Notes under the pieces: model-generated
Database searches by the model: none
What the model was told of the DNA's origin: nothing
What the model saw: the letters and a program-made list of their open reading frames with translations, nothing else
Origin: Desulfomonilia bacterium
GTDB lineage: Bacteria > Desulfobacterota > Desulfomonilia > UBA1062
Assembly (NCBI GenBank): GCA_963664325.2
Contig: CAXXDQ010000008.1
Span: forward strand, 160,001 to 224,000
Direction: 5' to 3'
DNA: 64,000 bases
Program-made: the position numbers and the translations under genes
In this document: positions 19,337-48,133 of the stretch, one piece after another
How positions within the stretch are numbered: position 1 is the first letter of the stretch
How the letters are laid out: every line of letters starts with the position of its first letter

Positions 19337-19348
19337 CAATTATAACAT

Positions 19349-26112: not shown

Positions 26113-28745
26113 TGTTTGCACTCAAAGACTATCAGGAATGGGCCTTGGATGCATTGCGGGAATACTTTCAAGAGTGTTCACGCACTGGTGATGCTAATGT
26201 CTCTTTTTATTTGGTTACGGAAAAGACACTGGGAATAAACGTCCCTTATAATAATGTTAGAGAACTGCCTGGGTTGCCCTACGTCTGTTTGCGGATACCC
26301 ACCGGAGGCGGCAAAACAATTGTTGCCTGTCACAGTATCGAGGTTGCGGCGAGGGAACTTGCACAGACTGAAAGCCCAGTTGTTTTGTGGCTTGTACCTT
26401 CCAATGCCATTCTTGAACAGACCATTGCCGCCTTGCGCAACCGAAACCATTCATACCGGCAGGCCGTTGAAACAACAGTTGGCGCGGTAAATGTACTTGA
26501 TGTGGAAGCGGCCTTGTATGTGAAGCGGGCGCAGCTTGAGGGAGAGGTAACCATTATTGTCACCACCATGCAGGCTTTCCGGGTGGAAGATACGGTAGGA
26601 CGGAGAGTATACAGGGATTCCGGTGACTTGATGGATCATTTTACCGGCATCCCGCCAGATGTATCAGACACTCTTGAAAAGGGTGAAGGCGGCAATATCA
26701 TTCATTCCCTTGCCAATGTTTTGAGATTGAGAAGGCCGGTTGTCATTGTTGATGAGGCGCACAACTCCCGGACAACTCTTTCTTTTGAAACTCTAGCCCG
26801 GTTCAATCCATCATGCATCATCGAGTTTACCGCCACGCCTGCCAGAGAAGAACATGCAAGCAACATTTTATACAGTGCATCCGCCGCTGATCTGAAATCC
26901 GCCCAAATGATAAAAATGCCAATCCACCTTTATACAAGGCCGGAATGGAAAGAACTGCTTTCCGATGCCATCAGCTGCCGGAACATACTTGAAGGAAAAG
27001 CGAACCTGGAACGGCAGCAAACAGGTGAATATATACGCCCCATAATGCTTATTCAGGCGCAGGCGCAACGGCAGGGGCAGGAAACCTTGTCCGTGGACGT
27101 TGTTAAACAATGCCTGATAACAGACCACAGAATCCCGGAAGAACAGATTGCCATTGCCACTGGCGCAACCAAGGAACTTGAAGGAATCGACATTCTGAAA
27201 GCCGATGTGCCGATACGTTATGTCATTACCATTCAAGCATTGCGTGAAGGGTGGGACTGCCCCTTTGCCTATGTGCTTTGCAGCGTTGCGGAATCACGTT
27301 CGGCAACGGCCATTGAACAGATATTGGGCCGGGTAATGCGGTTGCCAAGGGCGGCATGGAAGAACAAAGAAGAACTTAACAAGGCTTATGCTTTTGCCAC
27401 GTCTGCGAACTTTTCAGAGGTTGCCAACACCTTGACCGATGCCCTTGTGCAAAGCGGCTTTGAAAGGCAGGAAGCAAAAGACCTGATTATACCCGGCAAA
27501 ATAGAACAGACCGAACTCCCCTTAGACAAAAGTATGCCTTTTATGGGTGTGATAACTGTCACCATGCCTGAAAGGCCGGAGATTGAAAGGCTTTCTGAAG
27601 AAACCCGCAAGAAAGTCACCTTTGATGAAAAGGATAACAAGCTTTCATTCTACGGTGAAATGACCGATGCGGAGCGTGAAGAGATAAAGACTATCTGCAA
27701 CACAAACGAAGGCAAGGCCGGGGTTGACCGTGCGTTTTCTATTTCAATGGGCAAGAACCCTGAAGAGGAAAAGCGCACCCCTTCCGAAAAGAACATATCT
27801 TTTACGGTGCCGATGTTGTCGATAAAACAGGGGAGCCTTTTTGAACAGTTTGAAGAAACCCATTTCCTTGACCACCCCTGGGAACTGGCAAAATGTGACG
27901 CGCTTATTTCAGAGGAAGAATATTCGGCAAAACGGCCTGATGCCCAAAGCGGAGAAATAGACATTAATGAAAACGGCAAGGTAGCTTCAAGATTTGTATC
28001 CAAGCTGCAAAGCCAAATGACCCTTTTTACCAATAATGCAAGCTGGAGCGTTGCCAGCCTTGTTAATTGGCTTGACCGCAATATCCAGCATATCGACATC
28101 TCCCCAGAGGATACCGGCATATTTCTTACTCGGCTCGTCCAGACACTTATCGAACAGCGGGGCATGTCCATTGACCAGCTTGTCCTTGATAAGTACCGCT
28201 TGAAAAGGGCTGTTGAAAAGAAAATCGAACAGCATCGGCAAGATGCTAGAAACAAGACATATCAATTATTGTTGTTCGGGGAAAAGGCGGAAGTGATTGT
28301 TTCCCCGGATATATGTTTTTCATTTGCCGCTGATCCGAGAAAGTATGTCTATTCTAAAGCCTATCGGGGAAGGTATGAGTTTAAGAAACATTATTACCCT
28401 GAAATAGGCGACCTGGAAGAAAAGGGCGAAGAGTTTGAATGCGCCCAATTCATCGACCAAACGGAGGAAGTTGAATTTTGGGTGAGAAACCCAGTCAGGC
28501 GTCCCGGATATTCCTTCTGGCTGCAAACATCGACTGATAAGTTTTATCCTGATTTTGTCTGTAAGTTGAAAGACGGGCGGACTTTGGTTGTTGAGTACAA
28601 GGGCGGCCACCTATGGAACGACGAATCAAAAGAGAAGAAAATTCTTGGTGAATTGTGGGCTGAAAGAAGCAGTGGGTCTTGTCTCTTTGTTATGCCGACG
28701 GATAATAATTATGCTGATATTCGGTTAGCAATTAGCCATGAATGA
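26112..28745 (+). CDS. res: Type III restriction enzyme Res subunit (SF2 helicase plus PD-(D/E)xK nuclease)
   Basis: PTGGGKT, VDEAH, TAT, EGWDCP, QILGRVMR, C-terminal FYPDF...VEYKG; TGATG coupling with mod. Confidence 0.9.
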   Translation: MFALKDYQEWALDALREYFQECSRTGDANVSFYLVTEKTLGINVPYNNVRELPGLPYVCLRIPTGGGKTIVACHSIEVAARELAQTESPVVLWLVPSNAILEQTIAALRNRNHSYRQAVETTVGAVNVLDVEAALYVKRAQLEGEVTIIVTTMQAFRVEDTVGRRVYRDSGDLMDHFTGIPPDVSDTLEKGEGGNIIHSLANVLRLRRPVVIVDEAHNSRTTLSFETLARFNPSCIIEFTATPAREEHASNILYSASAADLKSAQMIKMPIHLYTRPEWKELLSDAISCRNILEGKANLERQQTGEYIRPIMLIQAQAQRQGQETLSVDVVKQCLITDHRIPEEQIAIATGATKELEGIDILKADVPIRYVITIQALREGWDCPFAYVLCSVAESRSATAIEQILGRVMRLPRAAWKNKEELNKAYAFATSANFSEVANTLTDALVQSGFERQEAKDLIIPGKIEQTELPLDKSMPFMGVITVTMPERPEIERLSEETRKKVTFDEKDNKLSFYGEMTDAEREEIKTICNTNEGKAGVDRAFSISMGKNPEEEKRTPSEKNISFTVPMLSIKQGSLFEQFEETHFLDHPWELAKCDALISEEEYSAKRPDAQSGEIDINENGKVASRFVSKLQSQMTLFTNNASWSVASLVNWLDRNIQHIDISPEDTGIFLTRLVQTLIEQRGMSIDQLVLDKYRLKRAVEKKIEQHRQDARNKTYQLLLFGEKAEVIVSPDICFSFAADPRKYVYSKAYRGRYEFKKHYYPEIGDLEEKGEEFECAQFIDQTEEVEFWVRNPVRRPGYSFWLQTSTDKFYPDFVCKLKDGRTLVVEYKGGHLWNDESKEKKILGELWAERSSGSCLFVMPTDNNYADIRLAISHE

Positions 28746-29006
28746 TATTTTTGACAGAAAAACAAACAAATCGTTGTAAATAAAAAAAGAATAAGGGGAC
28801 AACTCCCAAAAATTGACAATATAATGTAAATTTTTGTGGAAAAAGACTGCGGGACGCTCATAAATTAATAACTAATTTTGTAATAAGTTATCAACATTCC
28901 TGATTGTGTGCGCGGCGTCAAATTTCTCTCTGGAAGAAAGGAGATAAATATTTACCCTTATGACGTTTTAGTGCTATAGCTACATAACGTTTAAGGGGGT
29001 GATATT

Positions 29007-29768: not shown

Positions 29769-31465
29769 TTAAATCTTCTGCTCGATTATCATCTTCCTGA
29801 GTTCGCGTTTCAGGACCTTTCCGACTCCGCTTACGGGAAGCTGGTCCATGAATATTATCTTTTTCGGGACTTTGTATGCGGCCACATGTTCCTTCAGGTG
29901 GCTCAATATCTTATCGCGCTCGGCATCACTCTTTTCAATGCCGCTTTCAGGACTATGGCGCATGCAACCCTTTCCGAACCGGCCCTTTCAGGGTCCGGGA
30001 CGCCGAATGATGCCGCCATCTCGATATCCGGATGCTCGGTCAGAATGTCATCCAGCTCCCTTGTGAACACCTTGAACCCTGAAACGATTACCATGTCCTT
30101 AAGCCTGTCCACGATGTAGAAATACCCGTCCTCGTCCATCTTCGCTATGTCGCCAGTGAACATCCAGCCGTCCCTCAGGGCGTGCGCCGTCTCTTCAGGC
30201 TTGTTGTAGTATCCGAGCGTGAATACCTGCGGGCCGTTTATGGCGATCTCTCCGGGTTCCCCCACAGGCGCTTCCTTTCCGGTTTCCGGGTCGATCAGCC
30301 TGAATATGGTATCAGGCATCGGCATGCCGATTGAGCCGGGCTTCTTCTTGCCGTAGCGCGGAAGGCAGCATGTGACCGGCGAGGTTTCCGTCATGCCGTA
30401 AAGCTCGACCAGCTTCCCCGGTCCGATTATGGATTCAAATTCCTTTATGTTCTCTGGAGGGAAGGGCTGTGCGGCCGACATGCACCACTTTATGCCCGAG
30501 AAGTCAAGCGCCCTGAATGCTGGCTGTTTCATCAGCTCAAGGTAGATGGTTGTTACATTGACCAGAGCGGTCGGCTTGTACTTTTTAAGGGATTCAACAA
30601 GAAAATGAGTGTCCCTGGGGTTCGGAACCGCTATCTGGGTCATTCCTTTGATCATCGATACCGTTCCTAGTATCAGGCCTGCTATATGGAAAAGAGGGAA
30701 GGCGCAAAGGAAGGTATCGCCGGTCACGATGTCCATCCAGGTGGATATCTGGCTCACGTTGCACATGATGTTCTTCTGGGTGAGCAGGGCTCCTTTTGCA
30801 GGGCCGGTCGTACCGCCCGTGTACATCATGAACATGGGCTTATCCATGCCCTTTTTTTCATCCACGGCATCTGACGGCATGGCCTTCAGTGCGTCGATGA
30901 AGCGTTCAACCTTGACCCCTGCTGCGGGTTTAACTTCCGCCATTGGTATTTTTTTGAGGAGCTTGCCCAGAAAGGCCTTTACCGGCGGGAGGAAGTCGGC
31001 AATGGATGAGACCAGAACGGTCTTTAGCCCGGTCTTGTCCGCAATCTCCCGGATTTTTTCATAAAGTACGTCAACGGTTAAAACTATCTGTGTCCCCGAA
31101 TCTTCTATCTGATGGGTGAGCTCGCTGGCCGTGAGCAGCGGAGAGAGTCCTGTTGAGACGCAGCCCGCTTTCTGGACTGCAATAACCGCAATATAGTGCG
31201 CCGGGATGTTCGGCAGGTGCAGGCCCACAACCATGCCCGGTTTGAGCCCGTTCTTTTTCAGGTAATTAGCGAGCTTGTTTGACAGGTTGTCGAGGTCGCT
31301 GAACGTAAGCGCTCTGCCGAGATAAATAAGGGCGGTCTTGTCCGGGAACTTATGAACCGTTTCCCTGAATAGTTCGCAAAACGTCCTGTTGTCATACGAA
31401 ATGTTCGGCGGTACGTGAGAATCATAATTTTTTACCCATGGCTTTCCCATATAGACATCATTCAT
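29769..31465 (-). CDS. Long-chain fatty acid-CoA ligase (FadD-like; frameshift ~29945)
   Basis: YTGGTTGPAKG, PLFH, YGMTETSP, WMFTGD, DRLKDM..VSG; C-terminal AAYKVPK..LP.S.VGKVLKR in the adjacent frame. Confidence 0.9.
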
Positions 31466-31633
31466 TATCAACCCCTAAAAAAAATTATTTTAAAATTAAT
31501 AATCTAAAGTTTTATTACCGAATGAGGTTCAAAAAAAGAGATGCGGTCAGACAGGTTGGGTGTTTAAGATTTCTAGGTTTATTATATATTAATTTGTTGA
31601 TTTTACAAATTAAAAATATTGAAGAGGATAAGG

Positions 31634-31663
31634 AAAAGGCGGGGATTTTTTAATCCCCGCCTT
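31634..31663 (-). terminator. Intrinsic terminator of the glutamate synthase operon
   Basis: AAGGCGGGGATT-4 nt-AATCCCCGCCTT with a U-tract on the minus strand. Confidence 0.8.
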
Positions 31664-31678
31664 GCAGGTCAGGTTCTT

Positions 31679-34306
31679 CTATTCTTCCAGGCCGTCGTCT
31701 ACGACAGAGGCAGTAACTTTCTTCGGCTGGATTTTTCTGTAGACATCTTTTGCAGGCTTTTTCTTGCCATCAACGGTCAAGAGCCTTTCGATGCTGATAT
31801 CGAACAGGCTTTCGTTTTCCTTGAGATAAGCTTCGATAAGCTTCCAGTCGGCATCGGTGATCTTCGCGAATTCGCCGCCGTTGAGCTGCTCATCGACGAG
31901 TTTCTTGTGGGGGTCCCTCACATAGATCGCGCCGCCGGATGCGAGCGAAAAGATGTTGGAACCGGGATACGGCGAATCGTATTCCCTGATTGAGCCGTTG
32001 TCATCGTCAAAGCCGATGCCGTTCAGGATCACGAACCCGCCGCCGTTCAGCGGATCGCCTGCCATGAAAGATTCGGCCAGGTAGTCGAGGGCTGTTCCGT
32101 TGATCACGACCCTGGGCTTGCCGACGGCGTTGATAAGTGGACGGCCCGCCGCATTGCCCATGATGTAGGCGGCTCCGCCCTTTGCGCCGTACATGAATGT
32201 CTGGCCGACATCACCATAGACCACAAGCTTGCCTTCTTTCATTATCTGGCAGAGCTGGTCCTGGGCGTTGCCATGCACATGGATTTCCATCCCGTCGATG
32301 CCGGAAGCCAGATAGTCGCCCGATGAGCCGTAGACGTCTATCCGGACATCTTTTGTAGCCGGGCCGAGTCCGCAGCCTGTGAACCTCTGTCCCCGGTATT
32401 TATATACGATGAAGCGCTTCCAGCCGAGTTTGTTGGCCCTGGCGATCATGACGGCATCGCAGTTATCGCCTTCGGGTTCAAATTGTTCGGCATTGATTAC
32501 CAGCGTTTTTTCCATTTTACCCGGTGCCCTGAGCTTCTCTCGGGTGGAGAAATCAACCAGGGTGAATGCCGAGGCGGGTTTTTCATTGATCTTTCGCGTT
32601 GATGAAAAAATTTCATCCAGGTTTATTTTGATCACATGCTGCACCGAGCTTCTTTTAATGGCCCCGGTGTTGTAGCGGATATCATTCAAAAGAGTCAGGG
32701 CCGAGATTGCCGTCTGCTTGAACCCGTCATCCGTTAACGCCATGCCTTTGATGGTCTCCACGGCATACATCAGGCTGTTGGCATCGAATCCAGGAATGCC
32801 GTCCCTTATGTACTCGAATATCTTCCGTGCGGCGATTGCACCGTCCTTTTCGGCAGACAGGGCTTTCAGCTGTTTTTCAATTTTCCTGCATTCGCCTGTT
32901 TCTTCAATCTTCAAAGAGATGTCGCAAGCCGTTTTGTCCTTAGGGATGATGATTTCCTTGCCGAACTTGTCGGTGCAGACTAACCTTTTATTTTCCGACC
33001 CGTCGTCCGCGTCCTTGAGGCTGAATATAAACGAACCGCCGTCCGTATAGCTGCCGCCCCTCGCGTTCCAGTACTTGTCCGCAATCGGCTTGAAGCGGGG
33101 GTCTTCCCTTTCAAGGGAAATCAGTGTCGCATCGATGGCCTGTTTTTCCGAACAGATGAGGCCGATCTGCACCTCTCCATCCTGCAGCGCGAAAACCTGC
33201 GGACGGAGCATGGCAGTATCGGTAATGCCGATGAGCTGGAACTGCCTGTTCCTCACGTCATTCCTGGCGATGATAAAGAACCACGGACCGTCGGGCGATG
33301 CATTGACGTGATGCGTCTGTATGGCCTTGTAGAGTTCCTGTTTATCCGGGGGCAGCATGTCGAAATCCATCTCGGAAGTTGGGGCCATGGCCTCGATCAG
33401 GTATTCGAGAGGGTACTTGTACACGCGGCTCCACAGGTCGAGGAGCAGCGCCGCTTCCTCGGTGTCCGTCAGGAACAGCGGAAAATAGTTTCTCTGCTTG
33501 AGGTATTCATAAACCGACTGGTAGTTTGCGAAGTCCCCGTTATGCACCAGGGCTTCGTTAAGCGCGCTGAACGGATGGCAGCCGCCAGGATGCCATACGC
33601 GGCCCCGTGTCGGGTAGCGCTGGTGGGCAAGCCAGGCATGGGCTTTGAAGTCATCCAGTTTGTAATACCTGACGACGCTCTCGGCATAGCCGACTATTTT
33701 CAGGATCATCATGTTCCTGCCGTGGGACATTACAAATGCCTTTTTCTCGCCGAGAGAGGCGTAGTACCTGGTGTTTATCCTGAAGCTGTTCTGATAGACG
33801 AATTCGTCTTCGGCATCGCGCCTGTCGAGAGATTTAAAGCCGTTGTCCTTGATGTATTTGTCCAGCACGTCATCTTTGACGCGGACGAAATAGCGCATTA
33901 TATCAGGCGGCCTCACTTCCAGGCCTATGCTTTTATGGTCCTTGAGCGTGTCAAGCTTTTGAGCCTTGTCTATTTTGAAAAACGGCTTGATGAAGTCGTT
34001 TTCAATCTCCTGGGCGACGCTGCTGTCCAGCAGGGCGATATGCAGCATGTAGTCGTCATCCAGGACCTGCCTGGATACGCCCAGGGCCTTGGGTACAAAG
34101 CCTACGGCGCCTATGCCGCCGCCTTTTCCGTTGCCCCTGTTGTGCATCTGCACGGACGGTTCGAAGATGTTTTTCCCGGTGACGGGAATGGAGCTGATGA
34201 ATCCCGTGACACCGCATCCGCCTTCTTCTTCGGTATTCGGGGCGAGTTTCGGAACTTCCCTGCAAATCCCTGTTCGCGACTGTAATATTTTTTCTGCGTT
34301 ATCCAT
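31679..34306 (-). CDS. Split glutamate synthase subunit: glutamine amidotransferase plus GXGXG domains (GltB1+GltB3 fusion)
   Basis: EEEGGCGV (Ntn Cys), MHNRGNG.GGG, HQRYPT, HPF, HNGD, TDTE, DGP; GXGXG repeats (GDYLASG, GQTFMYGAKGG, GNAAGR). Start set at the ATG after SD GGAG. Confidence 0.88.
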   Translation of the reverse strand: MDNAEKILQSRTGICREVPKLAPNTEEEGGCGVTGFISSIPVTGKNIFEPSVQMHNRGNGKGGGIGAVGFVPKALGVSRQVLDDDYMLHIALLDSSVAQEIENDFIKPFFKIDKAQKLDTLKDHKSIGLEVRPPDIMRYFVRVKDDVLDKYIKDNGFKSLDRRDAEDEFVYQNSFRINTRYYASLGEKKAFVMSHGRNMMILKIVGYAESVVRYYKLDDFKAHAWLAHQRYPTRGRVWHPGGCHPFSALNEALVHNGDFANYQSVYEYLKQRNYFPLFLTDTEEAALLLDLWSRVYKYPLEYLIEAMAPTSEMDFDMLPPDKQELYKAIQTHHVNASPDGPWFFIIARNDVRNRQFQLIGITDTAMLRPQVFALQDGEVQIGLICSEKQAIDATLISLEREDPRFKPIADKYWNARGGSYTDGGSFIFSLKDADDGSENKRLVCTDKFGKEIIIPKDKTACDISLKIEETGECRKIEKQLKALSAEKDGAIAARKIFEYIRDGIPGFDANSLMYAVETIKGMALTDDGFKQTAISALTLLNDIRYNTGAIKRSSVQHVIKINLDEIFSSTRKINEKPASAFTLVDFSTREKLRAPGKMEKTLVINAEQFEPEGDNCDAVMIARANKLGWKRFIVYKYRGQRFTGCGLGPATKDVRIDVYGSSGDYLASGIDGMEIHVHGNAQDQLCQIMKEGKLVVYGDVGQTFMYGAKGGAAYIMGNAAGRPLINAVGKPRVVINGTALDYLAESFMAGDPLNGGGFVILNGIGFDDDNGSIREYDSPYPGSNIFSLASGGAIYVRDPHKKLVDEQLNGGEFAKITDADWKLIEAYLKENESLFDISIERLLTVDGKKKPAKDVYRKIQPKKVTASVVDDGLEE

Positions 34307-34323
34307 TATATGCATACTCCACT

Positions 34324-35805
34324 TTATTTGCTGTAGTCCAGATGCTCGAGCAGGTCGGTGCGGCCGACCAGTTCGCCGACGCTCTTCATGCCGAATCCCC
34401 TGAGGATGTCGACGAGCTGTTCGTTCCAGGCGTTGTACATGTTGGTAAGGCGCTGTGTCGCCCATTCCTCGTCGAAGAGATCTGCCAGTTCGGAATCCGT
34501 AGAGGCTATGCCACGGGCGCAGCCGCGTCCCGATTCGCAGTTGCCGCAGCGCACGCATTCGAGGGAAACCAGTTCCGCCGTGCCGATGACAGCGCCGTCA
34601 GCCCCAAGGCAGATGGCCTTGGCCAGGTCGTGGGCCGTCCTTATGCCGCCCGAGGCGATCAGCGTCATTGCATCCCTGGCGCCTTCATCCTTCAGGAAAT
34701 TATGGACCTTTGTAATGGCGTACTCGATGGGCATGGCTATATTCTTTTTTGCAATGTCCGGGGCCGCGCCGGTGCCGCCGTACCCGCCGTCGATGTGAAT
34801 GATGTGGGCTCCGGCATAGTATGAGCCGACCGCAACCATGTCCACATCGTTAGGCGTCGAAACCTTGACCGAAACAAGGGCATTCGGGTTCATCTCCTTG
34901 ATCCAGTCGATGTGCTTCTTGTGGTCTTCGATTGAATATACGGAATGGAAGGGGAAAGGCGAGAACAGTGATGTGCCCTGGACGGCCTCACGCATTCTGG
35001 CCACGCTGGCCGTATTCTTTTCTCCGAGCAGATGTCCGCCGAGGCCGGGCTTCGCACCCTGTGCATATTTGAACTCGATAATCTTTACGCGTTGGATCGT
35101 CTCCTCTCGCACGCCGAACAACCCGGTCGCAACCTGGGTGATCACATGGTCGTCATAAGGGTGAAGTATTTCCGGATAGCCTCCTTCGCCTGTACAGGTA
35201 AAGGTGTTCCAGATGGTTGCGTTTCTCGCCTTCGATACCATTGTGGGGAGGCTTACGGAGCCGAACGACATCCCGCCTCCGTAAACGGGAGTTGAGATGA
35301 CTATATCGGCCCTGCCGTCGTTTCTGCGGTTCAGCTTTATGGCCGTTGATATCTCATGCCTGTCAACATCAGGGGGGTCGGAGGGGAATTTGAGGCGCAA
35401 CTTGTCAAAGCCGCCTCCCGAATTTCCCACATTGTATTCAAGGTCATTGCGGTCGGGGGGATAGCCGGTTTCGGCCATAATCCATGTCGCGGTGATTATA
35501 TCCGCTGTCCAGCGGTAGTCTCCGAGTGTTTCATACATGGGATTCAGTGAGAGGCTCAAAGCCTTGCGCGGACATTTTGCTATGCAGCAGAATTTCCTTT
35601 CCTGGCATTCGAAGCCGATACACCTGTAGTCAATCGGGGGCTTTACCTTGTTGTGGCCTTCGATCCTTTCATGGACGCCGAAAGGACAGGTATTGGCGCA
35701 TGTACCGCAGTTGATGCAGGCGTCGGACCTAGTGACCTTATACTTGGGGACATGGTGTTTGAACCTTGAAGGAGTTTCCTTGATTCTGACAGTCGATGGT
35801 TTCAT
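34324..35805 (-). CDS. Split glutamate synthase FMN/3Fe-4S subunit with N-terminal ferredoxin (GltB2)
   Basis: CINCGTC...CP; GMSFGS, TGEGG, QVATGLFGV, EFKYAQGAKPGLGGHL, SPFPFH, SVK, DG..GGTGAA, SGGIR, CVRCGNCESGRGC..GIA. Confidence 0.92.
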   Translation of the reverse strand: MKPSTVRIKETPSRFKHHVPKYKVTRSDACINCGTCANTCPFGVHERIEGHNKVKPPIDYRCIGFECQERKFCCIAKCPRKALSLSLNPMYETLGDYRWTADIITATWIMAETGYPPDRNDLEYNVGNSGGGFDKLRLKFPSDPPDVDRHEISTAIKLNRRNDGRADIVISTPVYGGGMSFGSVSLPTMVSKARNATIWNTFTCTGEGGYPEILHPYDDHVITQVATGLFGVREETIQRVKIIEFKYAQGAKPGLGGHLLGEKNTASVARMREAVQGTSLFSPFPFHSVYSIEDHKKHIDWIKEMNPNALVSVKVSTPNDVDMVAVGSYYAGAHIIHIDGGYGGTGAAPDIAKKNIAMPIEYAITKVHNFLKDEGARDAMTLIASGGIRTAHDLAKAICLGADGAVIGTAELVSLECVRCGNCESGRGCARGIASTDSELADLFDEEWATQRLTNMYNAWNEQLVDILRGFGMKSVGELVGRTDLLEHLDYSK

Positions 35806-37211
35806 AAGTTCACCGCTTCTTTTTTCTTGAACAGTTTCCCGAAGGTTTCATTGTCGATATCTTCGAAGAATATGGCCCTGCCGGTCTCGCCTCTGAGACG
35901 GCGGGCCTCCCTGATACCCATGGCGCCCATCATCTCGAGAATCTGCGAATGCCAGGCGCCCATAAGATTGACGATTCTCTGTTTTATAACCCTGGCAGAG
36001 ACCTTGTGCAGTCCGGCCGGAAGAACGAGAGGCTTTTCTGAATCCTCATACAGCCTTGCGCCCAGGGCGATGAAGAGGGGAATGTTTATCGCCGTCAGGT
36101 CAGTGCCGCAGATCATGGCCTTTGGCACATGTTCCGCCATGCCTATTCCGCCTGAGGCCATAATGCTTATCTCATCGCGGATTTTCTCTTCCACCAGCCT
36201 TAAGTGAACTGCGCGTATGATATCCTTTATCAGCCGGGGTTTCGAACCCGGTGCGGGATGAACCTCCCTGCCGCGATAGTCCGCAACAATATGGATAATT
36301 TCGGCACCGATATGCGCAAGGCCGGATACGACCGCTTCAACATTATCGGATGCCGGTACGCGGATAATTGTAAGGGCATTGCAGATTTTCCTGATCTTGT
36401 CTTTGACTGATGTAAAACCGGAAAGCATTTTTTCGGTATAGTCTATTTCAACGATCCTCGCTTTTTTCAGGATGGCCTTGTTCGCTTCGATTTGGCCGGC
36501 GGATACAAGCGGGATGATGTTATCGGCATATTTATCGAATTCATCCGTGATATCTTCTGCCGGCATGATGATGCAGGTTCCTATTTCCGAAGCTGCCTTG
36601 ACTATTGAAAGCTTTACGTGGGGATGAAGGTTTTCCGGCAATATGTCAAACACGATCGGGATCGGCAGCGCCAGGGTATCATGAATTTTTGAAAGCAGCC
36701 TTCCTTTGCCGTCAAAGCTGAGATGGTTGAGCTTCCTGCCCAGTTCAACTGCTGTGCTGATATATTCGCGCCCGTGTATGCCGTCCCTTGTGGGCCGTAC
36801 GATCTCGGACATGTCCGTCCACATGCTGTCGAAGCCCTCTCCGGTGAACGGCCCGCGGTAACCTGCACCGGTGACCGGGACCTTGCCATCCTCGGCCTGC
36901 TTCCAGAGGGTTATGAACATATCCGGCTTCCAGAAAGCACCCCCGGTTTTATGATAATCATCCTGTATGGATTTTACCAGTGCGCCGCGCGGGCACTCCT
37001 GGATGCATCTGAAACAGTTTCTGCATACGGAGGTGTGCGGGTCCGCCATTTGACGGGGGTCGTCTTTGCGGCGCTTGTGCGCTTCGTAGATGCACACCTT
37101 GGTGCACTTTCCGCAGTTGATGCAGTTCTCGCCGCGGGTTATGTTGAACTTGAACATATACTCAAGCTCAAGAGGGGTTGCTTTGGTATGAATGTGATAC
37201 TTTTTTGGCAT
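35802..37211 (-). CDS. Degenerate GltB2 paralog with a 2x[4Fe-4S] ferredoxin domain
   Basis: CINCGKC...C and CRNCFRCIQECP; GFDSMWTDMSEIVRPTRDG; RDEI...ASGGI..AEH..KA. The TGEGG, QGAKPG and 3Fe-4S Cys motifs are absent. Confidence 0.8.
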   Translation of the reverse strand: MPKKYHIHTKATPLELEYMFKFNITRGENCINCGKCTKVCIYEAHKRRKDDPRQMADPHTSVCRNCFRCIQECPRGALVKSIQDDYHKTGGAFWKPDMFITLWKQAEDGKVPVTGAGYRGPFTGEGFDSMWTDMSEIVRPTRDGIHGREYISTAVELGRKLNHLSFDGKGRLLSKIHDTLALPIPIVFDILPENLHPHVKLSIVKAASEIGTCIIMPAEDITDEFDKYADNIIPLVSAGQIEANKAILKKARIVEIDYTEKMLSGFTSVKDKIRKICNALTIIRVPASDNVEAVVSGLAHIGAEIIHIVADYRGREVHPAPGSKPRLIKDIIRAVHLRLVEEKIRDEISIMASGGIGMAEHVPKAMICGTDLTAINIPLFIALGARLYEDSEKPLVLPAGLHKVSARVIKQRIVNLMGAWHSQILEMMGAMGIREARRLRGETGRAIFFEDIDNETFGKLFKKKEAVNL

Positions 37212-37375
37212 GATCGTTATCCTTTAATAATAGTGGTGAGTGGCGAAGGATGAGTTAAAAACCGATATGGGACAGGATTGTTATAGAAATCCATCAATAA
37301 GGCATCATATTTTTTCGCGTTTTCTATTTTCATTTAACCCGCCGTATTTGCCTCACTGCCCGATACCAGTCTGAA

Positions 37376-39223
37376 TCAACTGTTCCTTTCCACCATATCC
37401 CAGTAATCCGTGCTTTCGTCGACTTTTTTAAGGAACCCGGCTATCTGTTCTTCGGGCCTGCCGAATTTAAATTCAATGCGCTTTTCAAGCGCTTCCCATA
37501 GTGCCATCAACTCGAGATTGGTCTGGCAGATATCTTCACATGCCTTGCATTTCATGCACATGAATGCCTTGGCGGCCTCTTCCGGAGTAACTTCTTTCCC
37601 GTCAGAGAGCTTCATGGCCAGTGCAATTTTACCTTTTGCAGTGAGGGCTTCGTCCCTGGTGACCAGGTATGCCGGGCATACGGCGATGCAGTTTCCGCAC
37701 TTTGCGCAGGCATGAGTGCTGAGCTCGAGATCAAGTTTGTCAACTTTCATGTTTCTGCCAAAAATCATTATGATGGCCTTGCCGATAATCGGCGAGAAAA
37801 TGGACAGAAGGCTCATGGATATGTTGAAGAACACAGGGTGGAAGAGGCCGGAGGTGATTAAATTTGAATCGATGCTGAAGAATTTGCCCGGATTCAGGAT
37901 ATTCTCGGGGTCGACCCTGTGCTTATATTCCCTCAGGTCGGACTGTTCCTGCCTGCTGAAGAGATAATTGATGAAAGAGGCATTCCAGAGTCCCAGTCCG
38001 TAAGGACGGGCTCCCAGACTTACGGCGGCCTTAGTCAGCAGTGAAACAAGAGGCATGCTGATGAAATATTTCTTGCTTCTTGAATCGCACAGGAATGTGG
38101 ACATGATCAGGGCGGAATGCTTGTCGATGATGTATGAGTCGATGCAGACCTCAACCCCGAAATCGTTGCCGAGCTTTTTCGCTTTCATGGTGAATGCCGC
38201 TGCAGACTTTATCGGCATGATGATTTCGCTGGCGAGTATGGTGGGTCCGAGGCGTTTTGTCTTCATTCCGAACAGGCGTTCATTCCACAGGTAGTTGGCC
38301 ACATAGCTGGGAGCCTCTTCGATACTGGCATTTAATGCCATGAATTTGGAAAAGACCTCGTCGTCCTCGGCGCTTCCGAATTCTATCAGGACGCCCGCCG
38401 TCTTCCTGAAAATGACTGCGTGCACCATCTCATTTATATCGCCAAGGTGGTTTTCATCAACGAAGCGAATAACGTTGGGATTCAAATTCTGAGACTCCAT
38501 GGTGTTTATGAATTCCCTGATAAACGTGAAAGCGTCCTTATCGCCTTTGAAATAGAGAAGGTGGGGATATGTCGCCTGGGGGACGTCACGCAGTTTGATT
38601 GTTGCCTCTGCAATGATGCCGAATTCTCCCTCCGTGGATATGAAATACTTGAAATCTTTGTCGGCAGGGGTCAGCTTTAAAATTTCTCCTTTGCCGGTAA
38701 TTACGGTCATGGACACTATTTGCTTTGATATATGGCCGTACCTGAAGCTGTTGATGCCGTACCCTCCCGTTGATATCCATCCTGCAACCGTAGAGAATTT
38801 GCTCGAAGGGTATGACATCAGACAAAGGCCTTCCTTTTTTGCGGCGATATCGATATCGCTCCATCTGGCGCCGGCTTCGACGGTTACAGTCTTGTCTTTC
38901 GTGTTGAGTTCCAGGATTTTTCTGAAGGGGGAAAGGTCAACAACTATACCTGCTTTTGTCGGGATAACGCCGCCGAATCCCCAGGATGCAGCACCTCTGG
39001 CTATTACAGGAATTTTTTTGTCATTTGCGAATCTGAGGACCTTCTGGATCTCTTCCTGAGTTTTGGGCTGTACGACAAAAGTGGGCATTGTCTTGAAAAA
39101 TGATTTTATCATGATAGGGGGTACATCGCCGATATCATGACTGTACATCTCCAATTCTTCAGCTTTGTCTAATACCCTGATATCGCTTTCAATCCGTCTG
39201 AATTCTTCTGCCAATGTCTTCAT
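37376..39223 (-). CDS. FAD-binding oxidoreductase (GlcD/VAO fold) with C-terminal 2x[4Fe-4S]
   Basis: ARGAASWGFGG, YPSS..STVAGW...GG.G, EGEFGII, K..VDP.NILNPGK, CAKCGNC...CP, CMKCKAC...C. Confidence 0.85.
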   Translation of the reverse strand: MKTLAEEFRRIESDIRVLDKAEELEMYSHDIGDVPPIMIKSFFKTMPTFVVQPKTQEEIQKVLRFANDKKIPVIARGAASWGFGGVIPTKAGIVVDLSPFRKILELNTKDKTVTVEAGARWSDIDIAAKKEGLCLMSYPSSKFSTVAGWISTGGYGINSFRYGHISKQIVSMTVITGKGEILKLTPADKDFKYFISTEGEFGIIAEATIKLRDVPQATYPHLLYFKGDKDAFTFIREFINTMESQNLNPNVIRFVDENHLGDINEMVHAVIFRKTAGVLIEFGSAEDDEVFSKFMALNASIEEAPSYVANYLWNERLFGMKTKRLGPTILASEIIMPIKSAAAFTMKAKKLGNDFGVEVCIDSYIIDKHSALIMSTFLCDSRSKKYFISMPLVSLLTKAAVSLGARPYGLGLWNASFINYLFSRQEQSDLREYKHRVDPENILNPGKFFSIDSNLITSGLFHPVFFNISMSLLSIFSPIIGKAIIMIFGRNMKVDKLDLELSTHACAKCGNCIAVCPAYLVTRDEALTAKGKIALAMKLSDGKEVTPEEAAKAFMCMKCKACEDICQTNLELMALWEALEKRIEFKFGRPEEQIAGFLKKVDESTDYWDMVERNS

Positions 39224-39314
39224 AATTTTCAGTTCTCTTTCAATCGCTTTGGTTTCATGGCTATAATACCATTTGTTTTAATATTCTATATAAGCAAAAC
39301 ATTCAATTTTATTG

Positions 39315-39330
39315 AGCAAGATATATGCCA
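39315..39330 (-). promoter_or_regulatory. Sigma-54 promoter of the glutamate synthase operon
   Basis: Minus strand TGGCATATATCTTGCT. Confidence 0.85.
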
Positions 39331-39461
39331 GAGAAGATTACTAATATATAACGGCATCCTGTTATATGTATGCCTTTGGATCAGGGCTGCAATATGAAGT
39401 CAAGCCCGTATTCAATGCAGGTTTAAGATCTGAAATACATAAATGAACCATCATAATTAAT

Positions 39462-39495
39462 GAAACAATATTGTGGTAAAGTACAATAATGTTTC
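39462..39495. promoter_or_regulatory. Tandem candidate enhancer sites
   Basis: GAAACAATATTGTGG and GTACAATAATGTTTC (ACA-N4-TGT at 39465 and 39483). Confidence 0.6.
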
Positions 39496-39679
39496 ATAGC
39501 TTTCCGCTTGTATGACAGTTAAGAATAATCAGAAGAACAGCTGCCATATAATTATATAATAAACCGCTTCAGGCATTCAGCAAACATTTTAATCTTGCCG
39601 CCTGCCGCCAAACACATCTGATGGGCTTTATGGTATATTTATTGTATTATAATTATCAATTAATGCAAGAGGTGGACAG

Positions 39680-42271
39680 ATGGGACTGTCGGCAAGGGTT
39701 ACTACCGGTATTGAGGGGCTCGATAATATAATCGACGGCCTCAGGATGGGAGACAATGTCGTCTGGCAGATTGAAGACATAAACAATTACAAAAAACTTG
39801 CGGAAGCTTTTGTAAAAAGTGCCATAAATGAAAAAAGACATGTCGTTTACATGAGATTCGGCCATCACGATCCTTTGTTTACATCAGGCGACGGGTTGAA
39901 AATCTATACGCTGAATCCGGACATAGGTTTTGAAGGGTTCTCATCAGAAGTACATAAAATAATAACAAAAGAGGGCCGGGACGTCTTTTACGTTTTCGAC
40001 AGCCTCTCCGATCTGCTGTCTTCTTGGGCGACTGATCTGATGATTGGCAATTTCTTTTTTATAACATGCCCCTATCTCTTTGATCTGAATACTGTCGCCT
40101 ATTTTGCACTTCTGCAAAACCGCCATTCGCACCACACGATTGCCAGAATAAGAGAGACCACGCAGCTCCTCATGGATGTGCACAGCACCGGAAAGGATTT
40201 GTATGTGCACCCCTTGAAGGTATGGAAAAGGTATTCGCCGACCATGTTCCTGCCTCATATGAAGGACGGGGATGCATTTGTTCCGATTACAAGAAGCCTT
40301 GACGCCTCCCGCCTGCTGTCACAGATATCCCGGAGATGGGATGAATCCACAAGAAGACAGCTCGATTACTGGGACAGGCTTTTCCTTCAGGCGGAAGAGA
40401 TGCAGACAAGGGATGTCAGCCCCGATGAAAAGAAAGAGATGATAGACCAGTTGTGCAGGATCATGCTGGTAAGGGAACCCCAAATGCTTGGCCTCGCCAG
40501 GGATCATTTCACGCTCGAGGACCTGCTGCAGATTAAAACCAGATTGATCGGAACTGGATATATCGGCGGCAAAACAGTGGGGATGCTGCTTGCAAGAAAG
40601 ATCCTCACGACAGATACCAGGATCGGGTTTGAACAGTATTTTGAACCACATGACTCCTTTTTTATAGGCTCGGATGTCTTTTATACCTATATTGTTCAGA
40701 ACGGCTGGTGGAAGCTGAGGATGAAGCAGAAGACAAAGGAGGGCTATCTAAAGGTCGCAAGAGAACTGAAGAATAAAATGGCTAAGGGCGTTTTCCCGGA
40801 CGAAGTCAAGGAGCAATTCTTACAGGTAATCGAATATTTCGGGCAGTCTCCCATAATAATCAGGTCTTCTTCCCTGCTCGAGGATTCCTTCGGCCATGCA
40901 TTTGCAGGGAAGTACGAAAGCTTTTTCTGCGCAAATCAGGGTACGCCCGAGGAGAGGTATGTCCAGTTCGAAGAAACGGTCAGAAAGGTTTACGCATCAA
41001 CGATGAATGAGGATGCGCTTATTTACAGGAGACAGCGCGGCCTGGAGGATCATGACGAGCAGATGGCGTTACTTGTGCAGCGTGTTTCCGGGGCTCACAG
41101 GAAAGATTACTTCTTCCCGGACCTTGCCGGCGTGGGTATGTCCTATAATACATTTGTCTGGAACAAGGGGATGAATCCCGCTGCCGGCATGCTGAGGCTG
41201 GTCCTCGGGCTCGGTACGCGCGCAGTAAACCGCATCGAAAATGACTATCCGAGAATGGTGGCCCTTGATGAACCCTTGCTGAGACCTCATGCGGGGATGA
41301 AGGATTTGAGAACCTACTCGCAGAGGAATGTCGATCTGATCAATATAAGGGAAAATGCATTTCAGACGGTAACGCTCATAAAGATGTTTGAGGAAAAGGT
41401 TGACATCCCGTTTGAAAAAATTGCCGCTCCTGATTATGAGATGACGGAAATACTGAGGAAGACAAGAGGAGAGGATATTGAGTCCTGGCTCCTGACTTTT
41501 GATAACCTGTTCACTGATACATCTTTTGTCAAGGTAATGCACGGCCTGTTGAAGAACCTTGAGAAGGCATACAGCTATCCTCTGGAGATCGAGTTTACGG
41601 TAAATTTCAATGAAGTGGGCGATTTCAGGATCAACCTGCTCCAGTGCAGGCCGCTGCAGGTCATAGGCATTGAAAAAAATATAAAGTTTCCAGAGAGGAT
41701 AAGTTCAGAAAAAGTAATTTTCAGTATGAACGGAAACTTTATGGGCGGCAGTATCGTTCAGCCGGTAAACAGGGTGATTTTCATACAGCCTGAGGCCTAC
41801 AGCGCCCTTCATCAGCATGAAAAATACGAGGTGGCGAGGATTATAGGCGATCTGAACAGAACGATAGAAAACAGGGATGACATGCCCACAATGCTTCTGG
41901 GTCCGGGCAGATGGGGCACAACAACACCGGCCCTCGGTATCCCGGTCCATTTCTCCGAGATAAACAACATGGCTGTTCTTGGTGAGATTGCCCATCTTGA
42001 CGGCAATCTCATGCCCGAACTTTCTTACGGAACGCATTTTTTTCAGGACCTTGTTGAGAACAGGATATTCTATGTGGCGATCTTCCCCTGGGAGGAAGAT
42101 GTTATTTTCAACAGCAAGAGGCTTTTAAAGGGCAGGAGCATCTTGAGCAGGATTCTGCCGGATGCGAAAAAATATAAAGATGTAATAAAGGTCTTTGAGA
42201 CAGCTGGTTCCGGACTTAATGTGGTCTCGGATGTGGTAACACAAAGGATCATGTGTTTCTTCAGAAGCTGA
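39680..42271 (+). CDS. PEP synthase/PPDK N-terminal (ATP-grasp) domain protein with a KaiC/RecA-like N-terminus
   Basis: N-terminal TTGIEGLD.IIDGL..GDNVVW; GYIGGK..G, IIRSSSLLED....FAGKY, MA.LVQ, GLG, EIEF, LLQCRP; C-terminal GPGRWG and GTHFFQ. Confidence 0.8.
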   Translation: MGLSARVTTGIEGLDNIIDGLRMGDNVVWQIEDINNYKKLAEAFVKSAINEKRHVVYMRFGHHDPLFTSGDGLKIYTLNPDIGFEGFSSEVHKIITKEGRDVFYVFDSLSDLLSSWATDLMIGNFFFITCPYLFDLNTVAYFALLQNRHSHHTIARIRETTQLLMDVHSTGKDLYVHPLKVWKRYSPTMFLPHMKDGDAFVPITRSLDASRLLSQISRRWDESTRRQLDYWDRLFLQAEEMQTRDVSPDEKKEMIDQLCRIMLVREPQMLGLARDHFTLEDLLQIKTRLIGTGYIGGKTVGMLLARKILTTDTRIGFEQYFEPHDSFFIGSDVFYTYIVQNGWWKLRMKQKTKEGYLKVARELKNKMAKGVFPDEVKEQFLQVIEYFGQSPIIIRSSSLLEDSFGHAFAGKYESFFCANQGTPEERYVQFEETVRKVYASTMNEDALIYRRQRGLEDHDEQMALLVQRVSGAHRKDYFFPDLAGVGMSYNTFVWNKGMNPAAGMLRLVLGLGTRAVNRIENDYPRMVALDEPLLRPHAGMKDLRTYSQRNVDLINIRENAFQTVTLIKMFEEKVDIPFEKIAAPDYEMTEILRKTRGEDIESWLLTFDNLFTDTSFVKVMHGLLKNLEKAYSYPLEIEFTVNFNEVGDFRINLLQCRPLQVIGIEKNIKFPERISSEKVIFSMNGNFMGGSIVQPVNRVIFIQPEAYSALHQHEKYEVARIIGDLNRTIENRDDMPTMLLGPGRWGTTTPALGIPVHFSEINNMAVLGEIAHLDGNLMPELSYGTHFFQDLVENRIFYVAIFPWEEDVIFNSKRLLKGRSILSRILPDAKKYKDVIKVFETAGSGLNVVSDVVTQRIMCFFRS

Positions 42272-46791: not shown

Positions 46792-48021
46792 TTAACTGCT
46801 GTAAGCGGTTTCACTGTGTTCGCTCAAATCCATGCCCATTACCTCGGATTCTGGTGTGAGCCTCAGGCCAATGAATTTATCGATTATCTTCAGAAGCAGC
46901 CAGCTTGCTATGAACACGAATGCCCCTACTGCTGCAACCGCCAGTGCCTGAACACCGAGAAGCGAAAGGTTGCCGTTTATGAGGCCGTCTGCACCGGCAG
47001 GATTTATGGCTTTTGATGCGAAGATTCCCACACATATGCTGCCGATAACCCCGCCGAACCCGTGTATGCCGACTACATCGAGACTGTCGTCATACCCGAG
47101 CCTGGATTTTACGGACACCGCTGCATAGCATGCACCGCCAGCCAGAAGGCCGATTATCACAGCCGAATTCGGACCTACAAAACCTGATGCCGGAGTGATG
47201 GTAGCAAGGCCTGCCACAGCACCTGAGGCTGCGCCGAGCGTTGTCGGTTTGCCTCGGTGAAGCCATTCAACAGCAACCCACATTGCCATTCCGGCCATCC
47301 CTCCCAGGTGTGTAGCAATATAGGCATTTCCAGCTACAGCATTGGCCGCCAGGGCGCTGCCGCCGTTGAAACCGAACCAGCCGAACCAGAGCAGGCCTGT
47401 ACCGATAAGGGTCATGGGCAGATTATGGGGAATGAACTTTTCATGGCCGTAACCCTTCCTTACACCTGTAACGACTGCAGCTGCAAGGGCGGCTGCACCG
47501 CAGGATAGATGGACTACAAGCCCGCCGGCGAAATCCAGCACACCCATATTTTTCAGCCACCCTCCTGCACCCCATACCCAATGGCATACCGGATTATACA
47601 CTAAAACAGCCCAGAGAATGCTGAAAAGAAGGAATGGACCGAACCTTATTCTTTCAGCAAATGTACCGGTTATGAGTGCAGGGGTAATTACCGCGAACAT
47701 GCACTGGAAGATCATAAATACATTGTGTGGAATCGTGGCTGCATAATCAGGATTTGGTGCCGATGATACACCGCGGAGGCCGATCCATGAGAAGTTTCCG
47801 ATAAAACCAGCGATATCAGGTCCGAATGAAAGGGAATATCCCAGATAAACCCATTCCAATGTTATCAGTGAAATCATTATAAAGCTCTGCATGATTGTGC
47901 CAAGGACGTTCTTGCCTCTCACCATGCCAGCGTAGAATATTGCAAGACCCGGCACCATGAGCATAACCAGGGCGGATGACAAGAGGACAAAAGCCGTGTC
48001 GGCTGACTGAATATGTTCCAT
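46792..48021 (-). CDS. amtB: Ammonium transporter
   Basis: DTAFVL.S.ALV..M.PGLA.FY.G, FQ.MFA.IT, DFAGG.VVH, WFGWFGFNGGS, DDSLDV.G.HG; start at the ATG after SD GGAGG. Confidence 0.96.
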   Translation of the reverse strand: MEHIQSADTAFVLLSSALVMLMVPGLAIFYAGMVRGKNVLGTIMQSFIMISLITLEWVYLGYSLSFGPDIAGFIGNFSWIGLRGVSSAPNPDYAATIPHNVFMIFQCMFAVITPALITGTFAERIRFGPFLLFSILWAVLVYNPVCHWVWGAGGWLKNMGVLDFAGGLVVHLSCGAAALAAAVVTGVRKGYGHEKFIPHNLPMTLIGTGLLWFGWFGFNGGSALAANAVAGNAYIATHLGGMAGMAMWVAVEWLHRGKPTTLGAASGAVAGLATITPASGFVGPNSAVIIGLLAGGACYAAVSVKSRLGYDDSLDVVGIHGFGGVIGSICVGIFASKAINPAGADGLINGNLSLLGVQALAVAAVGAFVFIASWLLLKIIDKFIGLRLTPESEVMGMDLSEHSETAYSS

Positions 48022-48054
48022 GTAAAAACACCTCCGGAGGGTTTTATATGGTAA

Positions 48055-48070
48055 AGCAACTGGAATGCCA
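48055..48070 (-). promoter_or_regulatory. Sigma-54 promoter of amtB-glnK(-asnB)
   Basis: Minus strand TGGCATTCCAGTTGCT. Confidence 0.85.
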
Positions 48071-48133
48071 GATATGCATGATTCATAACCACAGGTTAAT
48101 AAAACATTTTTTTGGCAAAAAACTTTAAGGAAT

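Follow-up and report, generated by a model that had tools for sequence, protein, structure and literature searches.

A split glutamate synthase operon from a Desulfomonilia bacterium with a GlcD-like FAD/iron-sulfur protein as a probable stand-in for GltD

We examined a 64,000-nucleotide stretch of DNA from a Desulfomonilia bacterium (GenBank assembly GCA_963664325.2, contig CAXXDQ010000008.1, positions 160,001 to 224,000; hereafter the window, with positions counted from its first nucleotide), which carries a minus-strand operon of four genes, G1 to G4, that probably encodes a glutamate synthase (GOGAT) with no GltD subunit. From its upstream end, G1 (39223–37376; 615 amino acids, aa) encodes a flavin adenine dinucleotide (FAD)-binding protein of the VAO/PCMH, GlcD-like type with a C-terminal 2x[4Fe-4S] domain, and G2 (37211–35802; 469 aa) a non-catalytic paralogue of the flavin mononucleotide (FMN) subunit with a 2x[4Fe-4S] ferredoxin domain. 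These are followed by G3 (35805–34324; 493 aa), with an N-terminal 2x[4Fe-4S] ferredoxin domain, an FMN/synthase barrel and a four-Cys barrel motif, and by G4 (34306–31679; 875 aa), with a class-II N-terminal nucleophile (Ntn) glutaminase, a linker region of approximately 180 aa and a GXGXG beta-helix. A preliminary description of the locus had listed an FAD/Fe-S protein, a degenerate and an intact ferredoxin-domain GltB2 and a GltB1+GltB3 fusion, bracketed by one sigma-54 promoter and one terminator; the four minus-strand open reading frames (ORFs) and their Pfam matches agree with that order, and both bracketing elements were recovered. The promoter is a -24/-12 element (TGGCAT-N5-TTGCT, 39330–39315, minus strand) approximately 90–110 nucleotides (nt) upstream of the G1 start codon. 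The intrinsic terminator (31663–31636, minus strand), in which a stem of 12 pairs (7 of them G-C) runs into a stretch of T, lies 15 nt past the G4 stop codon and is the sole strong terminator within 31400–39700. The previously described 4-nt overlap of G2 and G3 (35802–35805) and 17-nt gap between G3 and G4 were confirmed, the latter given a G4 start at ATG 34306, which is backed by relatives from the window's clade (loci whose G2 is at least 60% identical to that of the window), where the start codon lies 30 codons ahead of the catalytic Cys. G1 and G2 are separated by 164 nt, a gap not mentioned before. No NCBIfam model reached its cut-off for any of the four proteins.

The catalytic parts of G3 and G4 look intact as judged by alignment. 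G3 matched PF01645 along almost the entire profile (E 3.6e-86, positions 61–368 of 369) in addition to its ferredoxin domain, and it aligns to residues 904–1170 of the Azospirillum GltS alpha chain (1ea0/2vdc; E 5.6e-51) with the QGAKPG loop kept. Cys417, Cys423 and Cys429 align with three cysteines that we take to be ligands of the Azospirillum Fe-S cluster, and Cys420 is added as a fourth; the loop and all four barrel Cys are invariant in 27 sequences. G4 matched GXGXG (PF01493, E 2.7e-15) at residues 641–809 and GATase_6 (E 7.8e-6), and its best match of solved structure was the GlmS glutaminase domain 1xff (E 2e-4). The earlier reading of G4 as a GltB1+GltB3 fusion needs qualification: a single ORF with a GXGXG domain is present, but the glutaminase half is a divergent class-II (Ntn) domain with no clear Pfam GATase_2 match. 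All 66 relatives have the motif surrounding the catalytic Cys, Cys31, and in each of them the reading frame extends upstream of it, by 30 codons in the window's clade and by 11–12 in an archaeal clade, suggesting that a pro-sequence must be removed; E. coli GltB and PurF are processed likewise.

G2 is collinear with G3 (26% identity, E 1e-32) and matched a 2x[4Fe-4S] ferredoxin domain and the C-terminal half only of PF01645 (E 3.8e-6). It lacks the substrate/FMN loop and the GG-GTGA stretch, and a test for the conserved FMN/synthase loop came out negative. The label "degenerate" in the preliminary description holds for these missing catalytic loops, but not for the protein as a whole: database searches returned 7,676 matching proteins, of which those listed are approximately 70% identical, of equal length and spread across phyla. 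The eight ferredoxin-domain Cys are invariant in 59 sequences, and the four-Cys barrel motif is kept by most G2 proteins and lost in the window's clade only. In a tree of 40 G2 and 40 G3 sequences the two paralogues separated (support 100) and their internal clades resembled each other, which argues that the duplication is older than the spread of these genes through Bacteria and Archaea; the sequences thus indicate that G2 is ancient and strongly conserved rather than decaying. The AlphaFold2 model of G2 had a predicted local distance difference test score (pLDDT) of 83.4, and its most conserved block (approximately residues 114–146) scored below 50, as would be expected for a segment that folds only against a partner. 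Foldseek matched the model to generic FMN-type TIM barrels, an output from which the central and FMN domains of GltS are not distinguishable. In databases, G2 is labelled "ferredoxin" or "glutamate synthase-related protein".

The central domain of GltS offers a possible counterpart for G2. According to PMC8097209, this domain is a truncated barrel that may stem from duplication of the FMN barrel, and together with the FMN domain it forms the lining of the ammonia tunnel of GltS. We built a profile from ten central domains found in genomes of the phylum; it matched the G2 profile with 82.5% probability (E 9.7e-6, 175 columns) and the G3 profile with 76% (E 2.3e-5, 121 columns). These comparisons leave it somewhat short of an even chance that G2 fills the place of the central domain.

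G1 matched Pfam FAD_binding_4 (E 3e-36), FAD-oxidase_C (E 4.9e-10) and, at its C terminus, the Fer4_8 dicluster (E 6.1e-9), with no CCG domain or other acceptor among the Pfam matches besides its own 2x[4Fe-4S] domain. The closest sequence match in the PDB was LctD (7qh2_C, E 1.3e-23), followed by alkyl-dihydroxyacetone phosphate synthase and D-lactate dehydrogenases. Foldseek analysis of the AlphaFold2 model (mean pLDDT 86.6) gave mouse D-lactate dehydrogenase 8jde as the top match (E 8e-24, template-modelling (TM) score 0.83 to target), with TM scores of 0.81–0.85 to target for the two-domain FAD fold of D-2-hydroxyacid dehydrogenases. In the phmmer alignment to LctD, the His pair of H-x6-H is replaced by Tyr363 and Ala370, and the Glu-His of EHG by Pro407-Tyr408; we take these positions to be the metal and catalytic site of the LctD family. 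Arg316 is kept, in a W..R motif common to LctD whose Arg presumably binds the substrate carboxylate. Conservation was assessed in 49 sequences (37 split and 12 fused): all eight Cys are invariant, as are Trp313, Arg316, Glu333, Asp380, Arg382, Pro407, Tyr408, Trp413, Lys434, Asp438 and Asn444. Read together, these residues indicate a pocket that is conserved but remodelled, and a protein other than a standard 2-hydroxyacid dehydrogenase; the electron donor is not readable from the G1 sequence. Because its metal and catalytic positions are replaced, G1 was not accepted as an ordinary dehydrogenase of D-lactate, glycolate or D-2-hydroxyglutarate. A hydrophobic stretch of G1 (approximately residues 455–490) was likewise discarded as a membrane anchor, the family consensus being not hydrophobic and the segment being modelled as a helix (pLDDT 77–87). 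A complex prediction of G2 (13–441) with G1 (45–615), both with alignments, scored 0.30 against a mark of 0.32, which argues neither for nor against an association.

To assess how specifically G1 is tied to GOGAT genes, 301 sampled genomes of the phylum were searched, giving 20 matches at E <= 1e-60 in 19 genomes. The 16 matches at E <= 1e-100 are all GOGAT-linked, seven of them adjoining G2 (the window included) and nine fused to it; by their coordinates, each of the seven split copies lies within approximately 170 nt of G2. The remaining four belong to a distinct family of approximately 1,040 aa with CCG domains. One of these four is encoded in the window's own genome (G000:C4:129192-132353, equivalent to L096:2193-5354; 1,054 aa, 29% identity): this distant relative of G1 combines FAD_binding_4 with an Fe-S dicluster and two CCG domains and has no GOGAT linkage. 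Among the proteins named in our searches, G1 is labelled only generically, e.g. "FAD-binding protein".

The strongest evidence for the four proteins forming one enzyme comes from the fused forms, as far as sequence can tell. In 9 of the 301 genomes, full-length G1-like segments (31–36% identity) lie inside open frames of 1,924–2,548 aa. Two single ORFs, L089:1277-8881 (2,534 aa, genome G124) and L091:1106-8701 (2,531 aa, genome G011), contain G1-G2-G3-G4 in operon order: BLASTP with the window's proteins on such long frames placed G1 at 15–625, G2 at 652–1102, G3 at 1158–1620 and G4 at 1668–2500, and Pfam returned, in order, FAD_binding_4, FAD-oxidase_C, a Fer4 dicluster, a second Fer4 dicluster, Glu_synthase and GXGXG. 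At least 129 fused protein clusters exist at 90% identity, 104 of these longer than 2,480 aa; those named are labelled "glutamate synthase-related protein" or "FAD-binding protein". Only four CxxCxxCxxxC motifs are present in the fused form, two from G1 and two from the G2 ferredoxin domain, and the ferredoxin domain of G3 is missing, suggesting that the G2 ferredoxin domain is the link between G1 and G3. Pfam detected no nucleotide-binding domain other than the G1 FAD domain. In 6 of 6 fused proteins examined, the glutaminase Cys is internal and follows a linker rich in Pro and Ser, a position at which self-cleavage of the protein would be needed. Shorter fusions also occur: in 11 of the 91 G2-bearing genomes (G045, G059, G083, G096, G117, G129, G211, G221, G241, G269 and G297), G2 lies in an ORF of 975–1,086 aa, a length that fits G2+G3, and in a Latescibacterota locus (L037:1809-5015) one frame runs through both the G2 and the G3 matches.

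To examine the prevalence of the operon, we searched GTDB species genomes with a G2 profile, which yielded 562 loci, and kept the best 80; their neighbourhoods were surveyed by tblastn with the window's proteins, using as denominators the loci with room to see the gene in question. G3 follows G2 in 69 of 70 loci and both halves of G4 come next in 56 of 57, the halves abutting within 13 nt in 56 of 59, revealing G2-G3-G4 as a near-universal core. In the phylum sample, G2 was present in 91 of the 301 genomes. The four-gene conservation implied by the preliminary description stands for this core and only in part for G1, which immediately precedes G2 in 37 of 73 loci, yet in 28 of 28 loci of the window's clade. 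The latter belong to Smithellaceae, Syntrophus, Syntrophomonas, Chloroflexota and Opitutaceae; among the 45 other loci, G1 is upstream in 9 (ANME-1 (anaerobic methanotrophic archaea, ANME), Methanocellales, Bathyarchaeia and others), with a gap of 2–5 nt between G1 and G2. Adjacency of G1 and G2 thus spans Thermodesulfobacteriota, Bacillota, Chloroflexota, Verrucomicrobiota and several archaeal lineages. In the G2 tree as in the G3 tree, bacterial G1-bearing loci form one group with short branches (support 100 each); since one clade covers four phyla in both trees, the four-gene unit appears to have moved horizontally as a block, and the trees indicate a single origin for it in bacteria. The search detected neither G1 nor G2 in the three remaining genomes sampled from the window's own family, and copies 62–73% identical occur in other families, a distribution that fits acquisition of the operon by horizontal transfer.

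The operon is, by Pfam searches, the only GOGAT of this 4.3-Mb genome: PF01645 occurs in G2 and G3 only, GXGXG is present as a single copy in G4, and the PF04898 central domain gave no match above cut-off in G1–G4 or anywhere in the genome. Pfam detected no gltD (Fer4_20 plus pyridine-nucleotide-disulfide oxidoreductase) within the operon. In the related loci, no GltD-like gene was found within 8 kb in 79 of 80, the single exception being a separate canonical gltBD, so the proposed absence of GltD holds for the operon and its relatives' neighbourhoods. Elsewhere in the genome, GltD-type Fer4_20 matches occur at six places, four of them above the Pfam cut-off and none near the operon. The best is a 467-aa protein encoded directly after a 281-aa NfnA-like protein, which is the Nfn arrangement; two further modules lie inside NuoF-like (1,015 aa) and HdrA-like (1,481 aa) proteins, and one protein of 538 aa stands alone.

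The window appears from its gene content to be a nitrogen-assimilation neighbourhood. Besides G1–G4 it contains genes for a GAF/sigma-54 activator (11021–12553), glnA (12808–14175), a type III glutamine synthetase (GS; 14480–16648), glnD (16865–19339), asnB (44481–46148) and amt (46792–48156). The genome has three glutamine-synthetase-type genes, two of them inside the window, and one glutamate dehydrogenase. Exact matches to TGGCAYN5TTGCW number four in the window against 0.22 expected. In addition to the site upstream of G1, they lie at 14391–14406 (plus strand) ahead of the type III GS, at 48055–48070 (minus strand) before or within the start region of amt, and at 48288–48303 (plus strand) ahead of a 162-aa ORF. 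An imperfect inverted repeat at 39460–39497 (minus strand), approximately 130–180 nt upstream of the -24/-12 element, has 15-nt arms with 0 and 1 mismatch and an 8-nt spacer and is a candidate enhancer-binding-protein site. Half-sites resembling it occur six times in the window against 2.86 expected, which is not significant alone, including at 14311–14325 and 48161–48222, upstream of two other sigma-54 sites. The four sigma-54 sites and the half-sites hint that the nearby genes share a single nitrogen regulon, possibly one controlled by the GAF/sigma-54 activator. Sigma-70-like sites near the operon were not above chance (15 versus 9.3 +- 3.5).

Related loci have similar surroundings. A -24/-12 element lies 60–166 nt upstream of G1, not of G2, in 16 of 35 G1-bearing loci; it is absent in Chloroflexota and Archaea, as expected. 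The G1-bearing loci are flanked by glnA in 14 of 37 cases, by a GAF/sigma-54 activator in 8, a type III GS in 7 and amt in 5, and also by PII, and no obvious donor system was seen in these annotated gene clusters. We take DVU1823–DVU1821 of Desulfovibrio vulgaris to be a cluster of the G2–G4 type. PMC4641369 lists these genes among those controlled by a sigma-54 nitrogen regulator.

Within the spacer between G1 and G2, a 38-codon ORF (37217–37333, minus strand) fills most of the distance and was considered as a gene. Only the closest relative, L025, encodes something weakly similar (41% over 34 aa, E 2.3), which stops earlier, and the spacers of other relatives are approximately 45 nt long; the ORF is probably not coding. 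The RNA of the spacer is not unusually structured (z -0.67), and Rfam over 31000–40000 returned a chance miRNA match only (E 0.27). Divergently from the operon, an 863-aa protein is encoded at 39680–42271 (plus strand), whose only domain is PPDK_N (phosphoenolpyruvate-utilising, ATP-binding); its homologues adjoin the four-gene cluster in 7 of 37 G1-bearing loci, the window counted. Further away, at 24331–28745 (plus strand), a 593-aa ORF resembling adenine methyltransferases precedes one of 878 aa that weakly matches restriction endonucleases. The G+C content dips to 0.41 at 28000–28999, within the region of this pair; the two ORFs are probably a restriction-modification system that was inserted among metabolic genes.

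We propose, with a probability of roughly 0.7, that the operon encodes one multi-subunit, nitrogen-controlled GOGAT in which G1 takes the place of GltD. Domain content, conservation, gene order and the fusions are direct observations on the sequences. From here on we infer how the chains assemble, which way and by what route electrons travel, that G4 is processed and that the product acts as a GOGAT. A nitrogen-controlled sigma-54 promoter would drive the operon. G4 would hydrolyse glutamine at Cys31 once its 30-residue pro-sequence is gone, and the FMN site of G3 would carry out the reductive joining of ammonia and 2-oxoglutarate. G2 would serve as an Fe-S relay and scaffold, and may replace the central domain of bacterial GltB. 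Electrons would enter at G1, whose FAD would be reduced by a two-electron donor, and would then pass singly from its 2x[4Fe-4S] domain to the ferredoxin-domain clusters of G2, on to the clusters of G3 and finally to the FMN. Given that two electrons are required and that no further nucleotide-binding domain is present in the fused form, this FAD is the likely entry for a hydride donor. GltD, too, contains a flavin and two [4Fe-4S] clusters (PMC8097209), and by this analogy the FAD entry role of G1 likely mirrors that of GltD. The earlier proposal of a hetero-oligomeric GOGAT with a chain from FAD through Fe-S to FMN is thus supported by the gene order, the specificity of G1, the fusions and the position of the promoter upstream of G1, all of which suggest that G1 is very probably part of the enzyme, as a non-homologous stand-in for GltD. 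As to the donor, NAD(P)H is our first but tentative guess; an organic acid or other small metabolite seems unlikely, and the rest of the guess goes to something else, such as reduced coenzyme F420 (F420H2) or a protein donor. Unlikely too, and more so, is a fourth class of GOGAT whose donor is not NAD(P)H, ferredoxin or F420H2 but a small metabolite oxidised at a remodelled, metal-free G1 site (e.g. a 2-hydroxy acid like D-2-hydroxyglutarate, giving 2-oxoglutarate), and in which G2 is a free-standing relative of the duplicated barrel behind the central domain of GltS in bacteria and plants.

Several observations weigh against this proposal. G1 is missing from 36 of 73 loci, implying that the G2-G3-G4 core works without it. 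In 27 of these 36 G1-less loci (within L039–L088, e.g. L081:5916-7983), G2 is preceded on its own strand by an MvhD/FlpD-like gene, and between this gene and G2 are a MetV-like gene in 23 and a MetF-like gene (methylene-tetrahydrofolate reductase) in 25; the MvhD-like gene may be an alternative, Hdr-type electron link to the GOGAT core, or merely part of a neighbouring MetFV-MvhD unit. The 164-nt spacer between G1 and G2 exceeds the other junctions of the operon. Without the His/His/Glu-His residues, the FAD site of G1 may oxidise no known substrate of its family. The likeness of G2 to the central domain is barely better than that of G3. GltD-like modules do exist elsewhere in the genome, including the stand-alone 538-aa protein and the 467-aa protein next to the NfnA-like gene, and presence of a glutamate dehydrogenase means that GOGAT is not the sole route to glutamate.

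Some of these points would be accommodated if G1 were an independent FAD-dependent 2-hydroxyacid dehydrogenase, e.g. one converting D-2-hydroxyglutarate to 2-oxoglutarate, that is co-regulated with the GOGAT genes and not wired to their products. Its D-lactate dehydrogenase/LctD fold, the kept Arg316 of the W..R motif, the long spacer ahead of G2 and the half of G2–G4 loci that lack G1 all point that way. We nevertheless consider this improbable, since 9 of 301 genomes and at least 129 protein clusters have G1 in one covalent chain with G2-G3-G4, each of the 16 close homologues from those genomes is GOGAT-linked, the family's His, His and Glu-His positions are replaced, and G1 carries 2x[4Fe-4S] and neither a CCG domain nor another acceptor. 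The same absence of G1 from 36 of 73 loci would also suit an enzyme dependent on ferredoxin or on GltD, with electrons entering through the ferredoxin domains of G2 and G3 and with G1 as an accessory, e.g. for regulation or cluster repair. The genome does hold four Fer4_20/GltD-like modules above the Pfam cut-off, and ferredoxin is the assumed donor for the split GOGAT of C. thermocellum, whose activity was still unmeasured (PMC9888227). However, the best of these modules sits in an Nfn arrangement and two more are fused to NuoF-like and HdrA-like proteins, 79 of 80 related loci have no GltD-like gene within 8 kb, and the conserved FAD domain of G1, with its invariant polar cap residues, is hard to square with an accessory role, making this explanation rather unlikely.

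It is also conceivable that the operon encodes a GOGAT-like amidotransferase/reductase with other chemistry, resembling N-methylglutamate synthase or acting on another 2-oxoacid. N-Methylglutamate synthase (MgsABC) likewise has GltB1-, GltB2- and GltB3-like subunits and is genomically tied to methylamine-utilisation genes. The divergence of the G4 glutaminase, seen only as a GATase_6 match at E 7.8e-6, and the failure of all four proteins to reach an NCBIfam equivalog cut-off leave some room for such an enzyme, but in G3 the residues that align to the 2-oxoglutarate/FMN loop of GltS are kept, no GOGAT-type genes other than these occur in a genome that has three of the glutamine-synthetase type, and the flanks consist of glnA, glnN, amt, PII and a sigma-54 activator, with no methylamine genes seen. 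We regard it as very improbable and retain the proposal of a GOGAT with G1 as its electron-entry subunit.

The proposed enzyme can be compared with several known systems. Like the NADPH-dependent GOGAT of Azospirillum brasilense (GltB+GltD; 1ea0/2vdc/6s6s), it has an Ntn glutaminase, an FMN barrel with an adjacent Fe-S cluster, a GXGXG domain and an entry module with a flavin and two [4Fe-4S] clusters. In contrast to that enzyme, the equivalent of the alpha chain is split and reordered; the central domain is missing and a full-length non-catalytic barrel paralogue, G2, is present; the entry module is a VAO/PCMH-type FAD protein instead of the adrenodoxin-reductase-like GltD; and the extra ferredoxin domains bring the predicted number of Fe-S clusters to approximately seven, compared with three. 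Archaeal split GOGATs consist of GltB1, GltB2 and GltB3 encoded by three genes, with no further subunits. The operon departs from this layout: the GltB1- and GltB3-like parts form one ORF here and in 56 of 59 loci, and G1 and G2 are extra. With the archaeal type and with C. thermocellum Clo1313_2032–2036 the operon shares the distribution of functions over separate genes and an FMN subunit with an N-terminal ferredoxin domain; it differs from both in combining GltB1 and GltB3 in one gene and in having a second, non-catalytic GltB2 paralogue and a leading FAD/Fe-S gene. For Archaea, PMC8097209 goes no further than ORFs that encode single GltS domains, and according to PMC9888227 the GOGAT activity of the split C. 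thermocellum cluster had not been measured.

Compared with LctD (Ldh-EtfAB, 7qh2), mouse D-lactate dehydrogenase 8jde and GlcD, G1 has the same two-domain FAD fold and the W..R Arg, but Tyr, Ala and Pro-Tyr at the His/His/Glu-His positions, a C-terminal 2x[4Fe-4S] domain and, for its close homologues in the 301 genomes, an occurrence only next to GOGAT genes or fused to their products. F420-dependent glutamate synthases with FrhB-type modules beside GOGAT subunits have been proposed for methanogens and ANME (PMC9012536). Both those enzymes and the one proposed here would be a split core with an alternative flavin/Fe-S entry replacing GltD; G1, however, is not FrhB-like, and its type also occurs in bacteria. 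No use of F420 is known for those bacteria. No FrhB-type Pfam family was detected in G1–G4 at E <= 0.01, nor in the annotated flanking gene clusters.

Our literature search, in which coverage of subscription journals was partial, found no description of a GOGAT with a GlcD-like FAD/Fe-S subunit or with a second, non-catalytic GltB2 paralogue. The G1–G4 type belongs to a widespread, biochemically uncharacterised family, and the near-universal G2-G3-G4 core, the adjacency pattern of G1 and the G1-G2-G3-G4 and G2-G3 fusions are new here.

The GS-GOGAT pathway is the main route of ammonium assimilation. The donor of the split GOGATs of strict anaerobes is unmeasured, as PMC9888227 states for C. 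thermocellum, and the locus family described here offers a testable enzyme, with the single-chain G1-G2-G3-G4 fusions as a convenient protein for expression, donor screening and cryo-electron microscopy. Its organisation points to a conserved G2-G3-G4 core with an interchangeable electron-entry module, which would be G1 in some lineages and possibly the MvhD-like gene in others, and G2 could illuminate the origin of the central domain of GltS. If our proposal is true, GltD would have been exchanged for a VAO-type flavoprotein, clearly a non-homologous replacement within a textbook enzyme. Since G1 and G2 carry generic labels, models built from genomes may get the redox cost of assimilating nitrogen wrong for syntrophs, Dehalococcoidia and ANME archaea.

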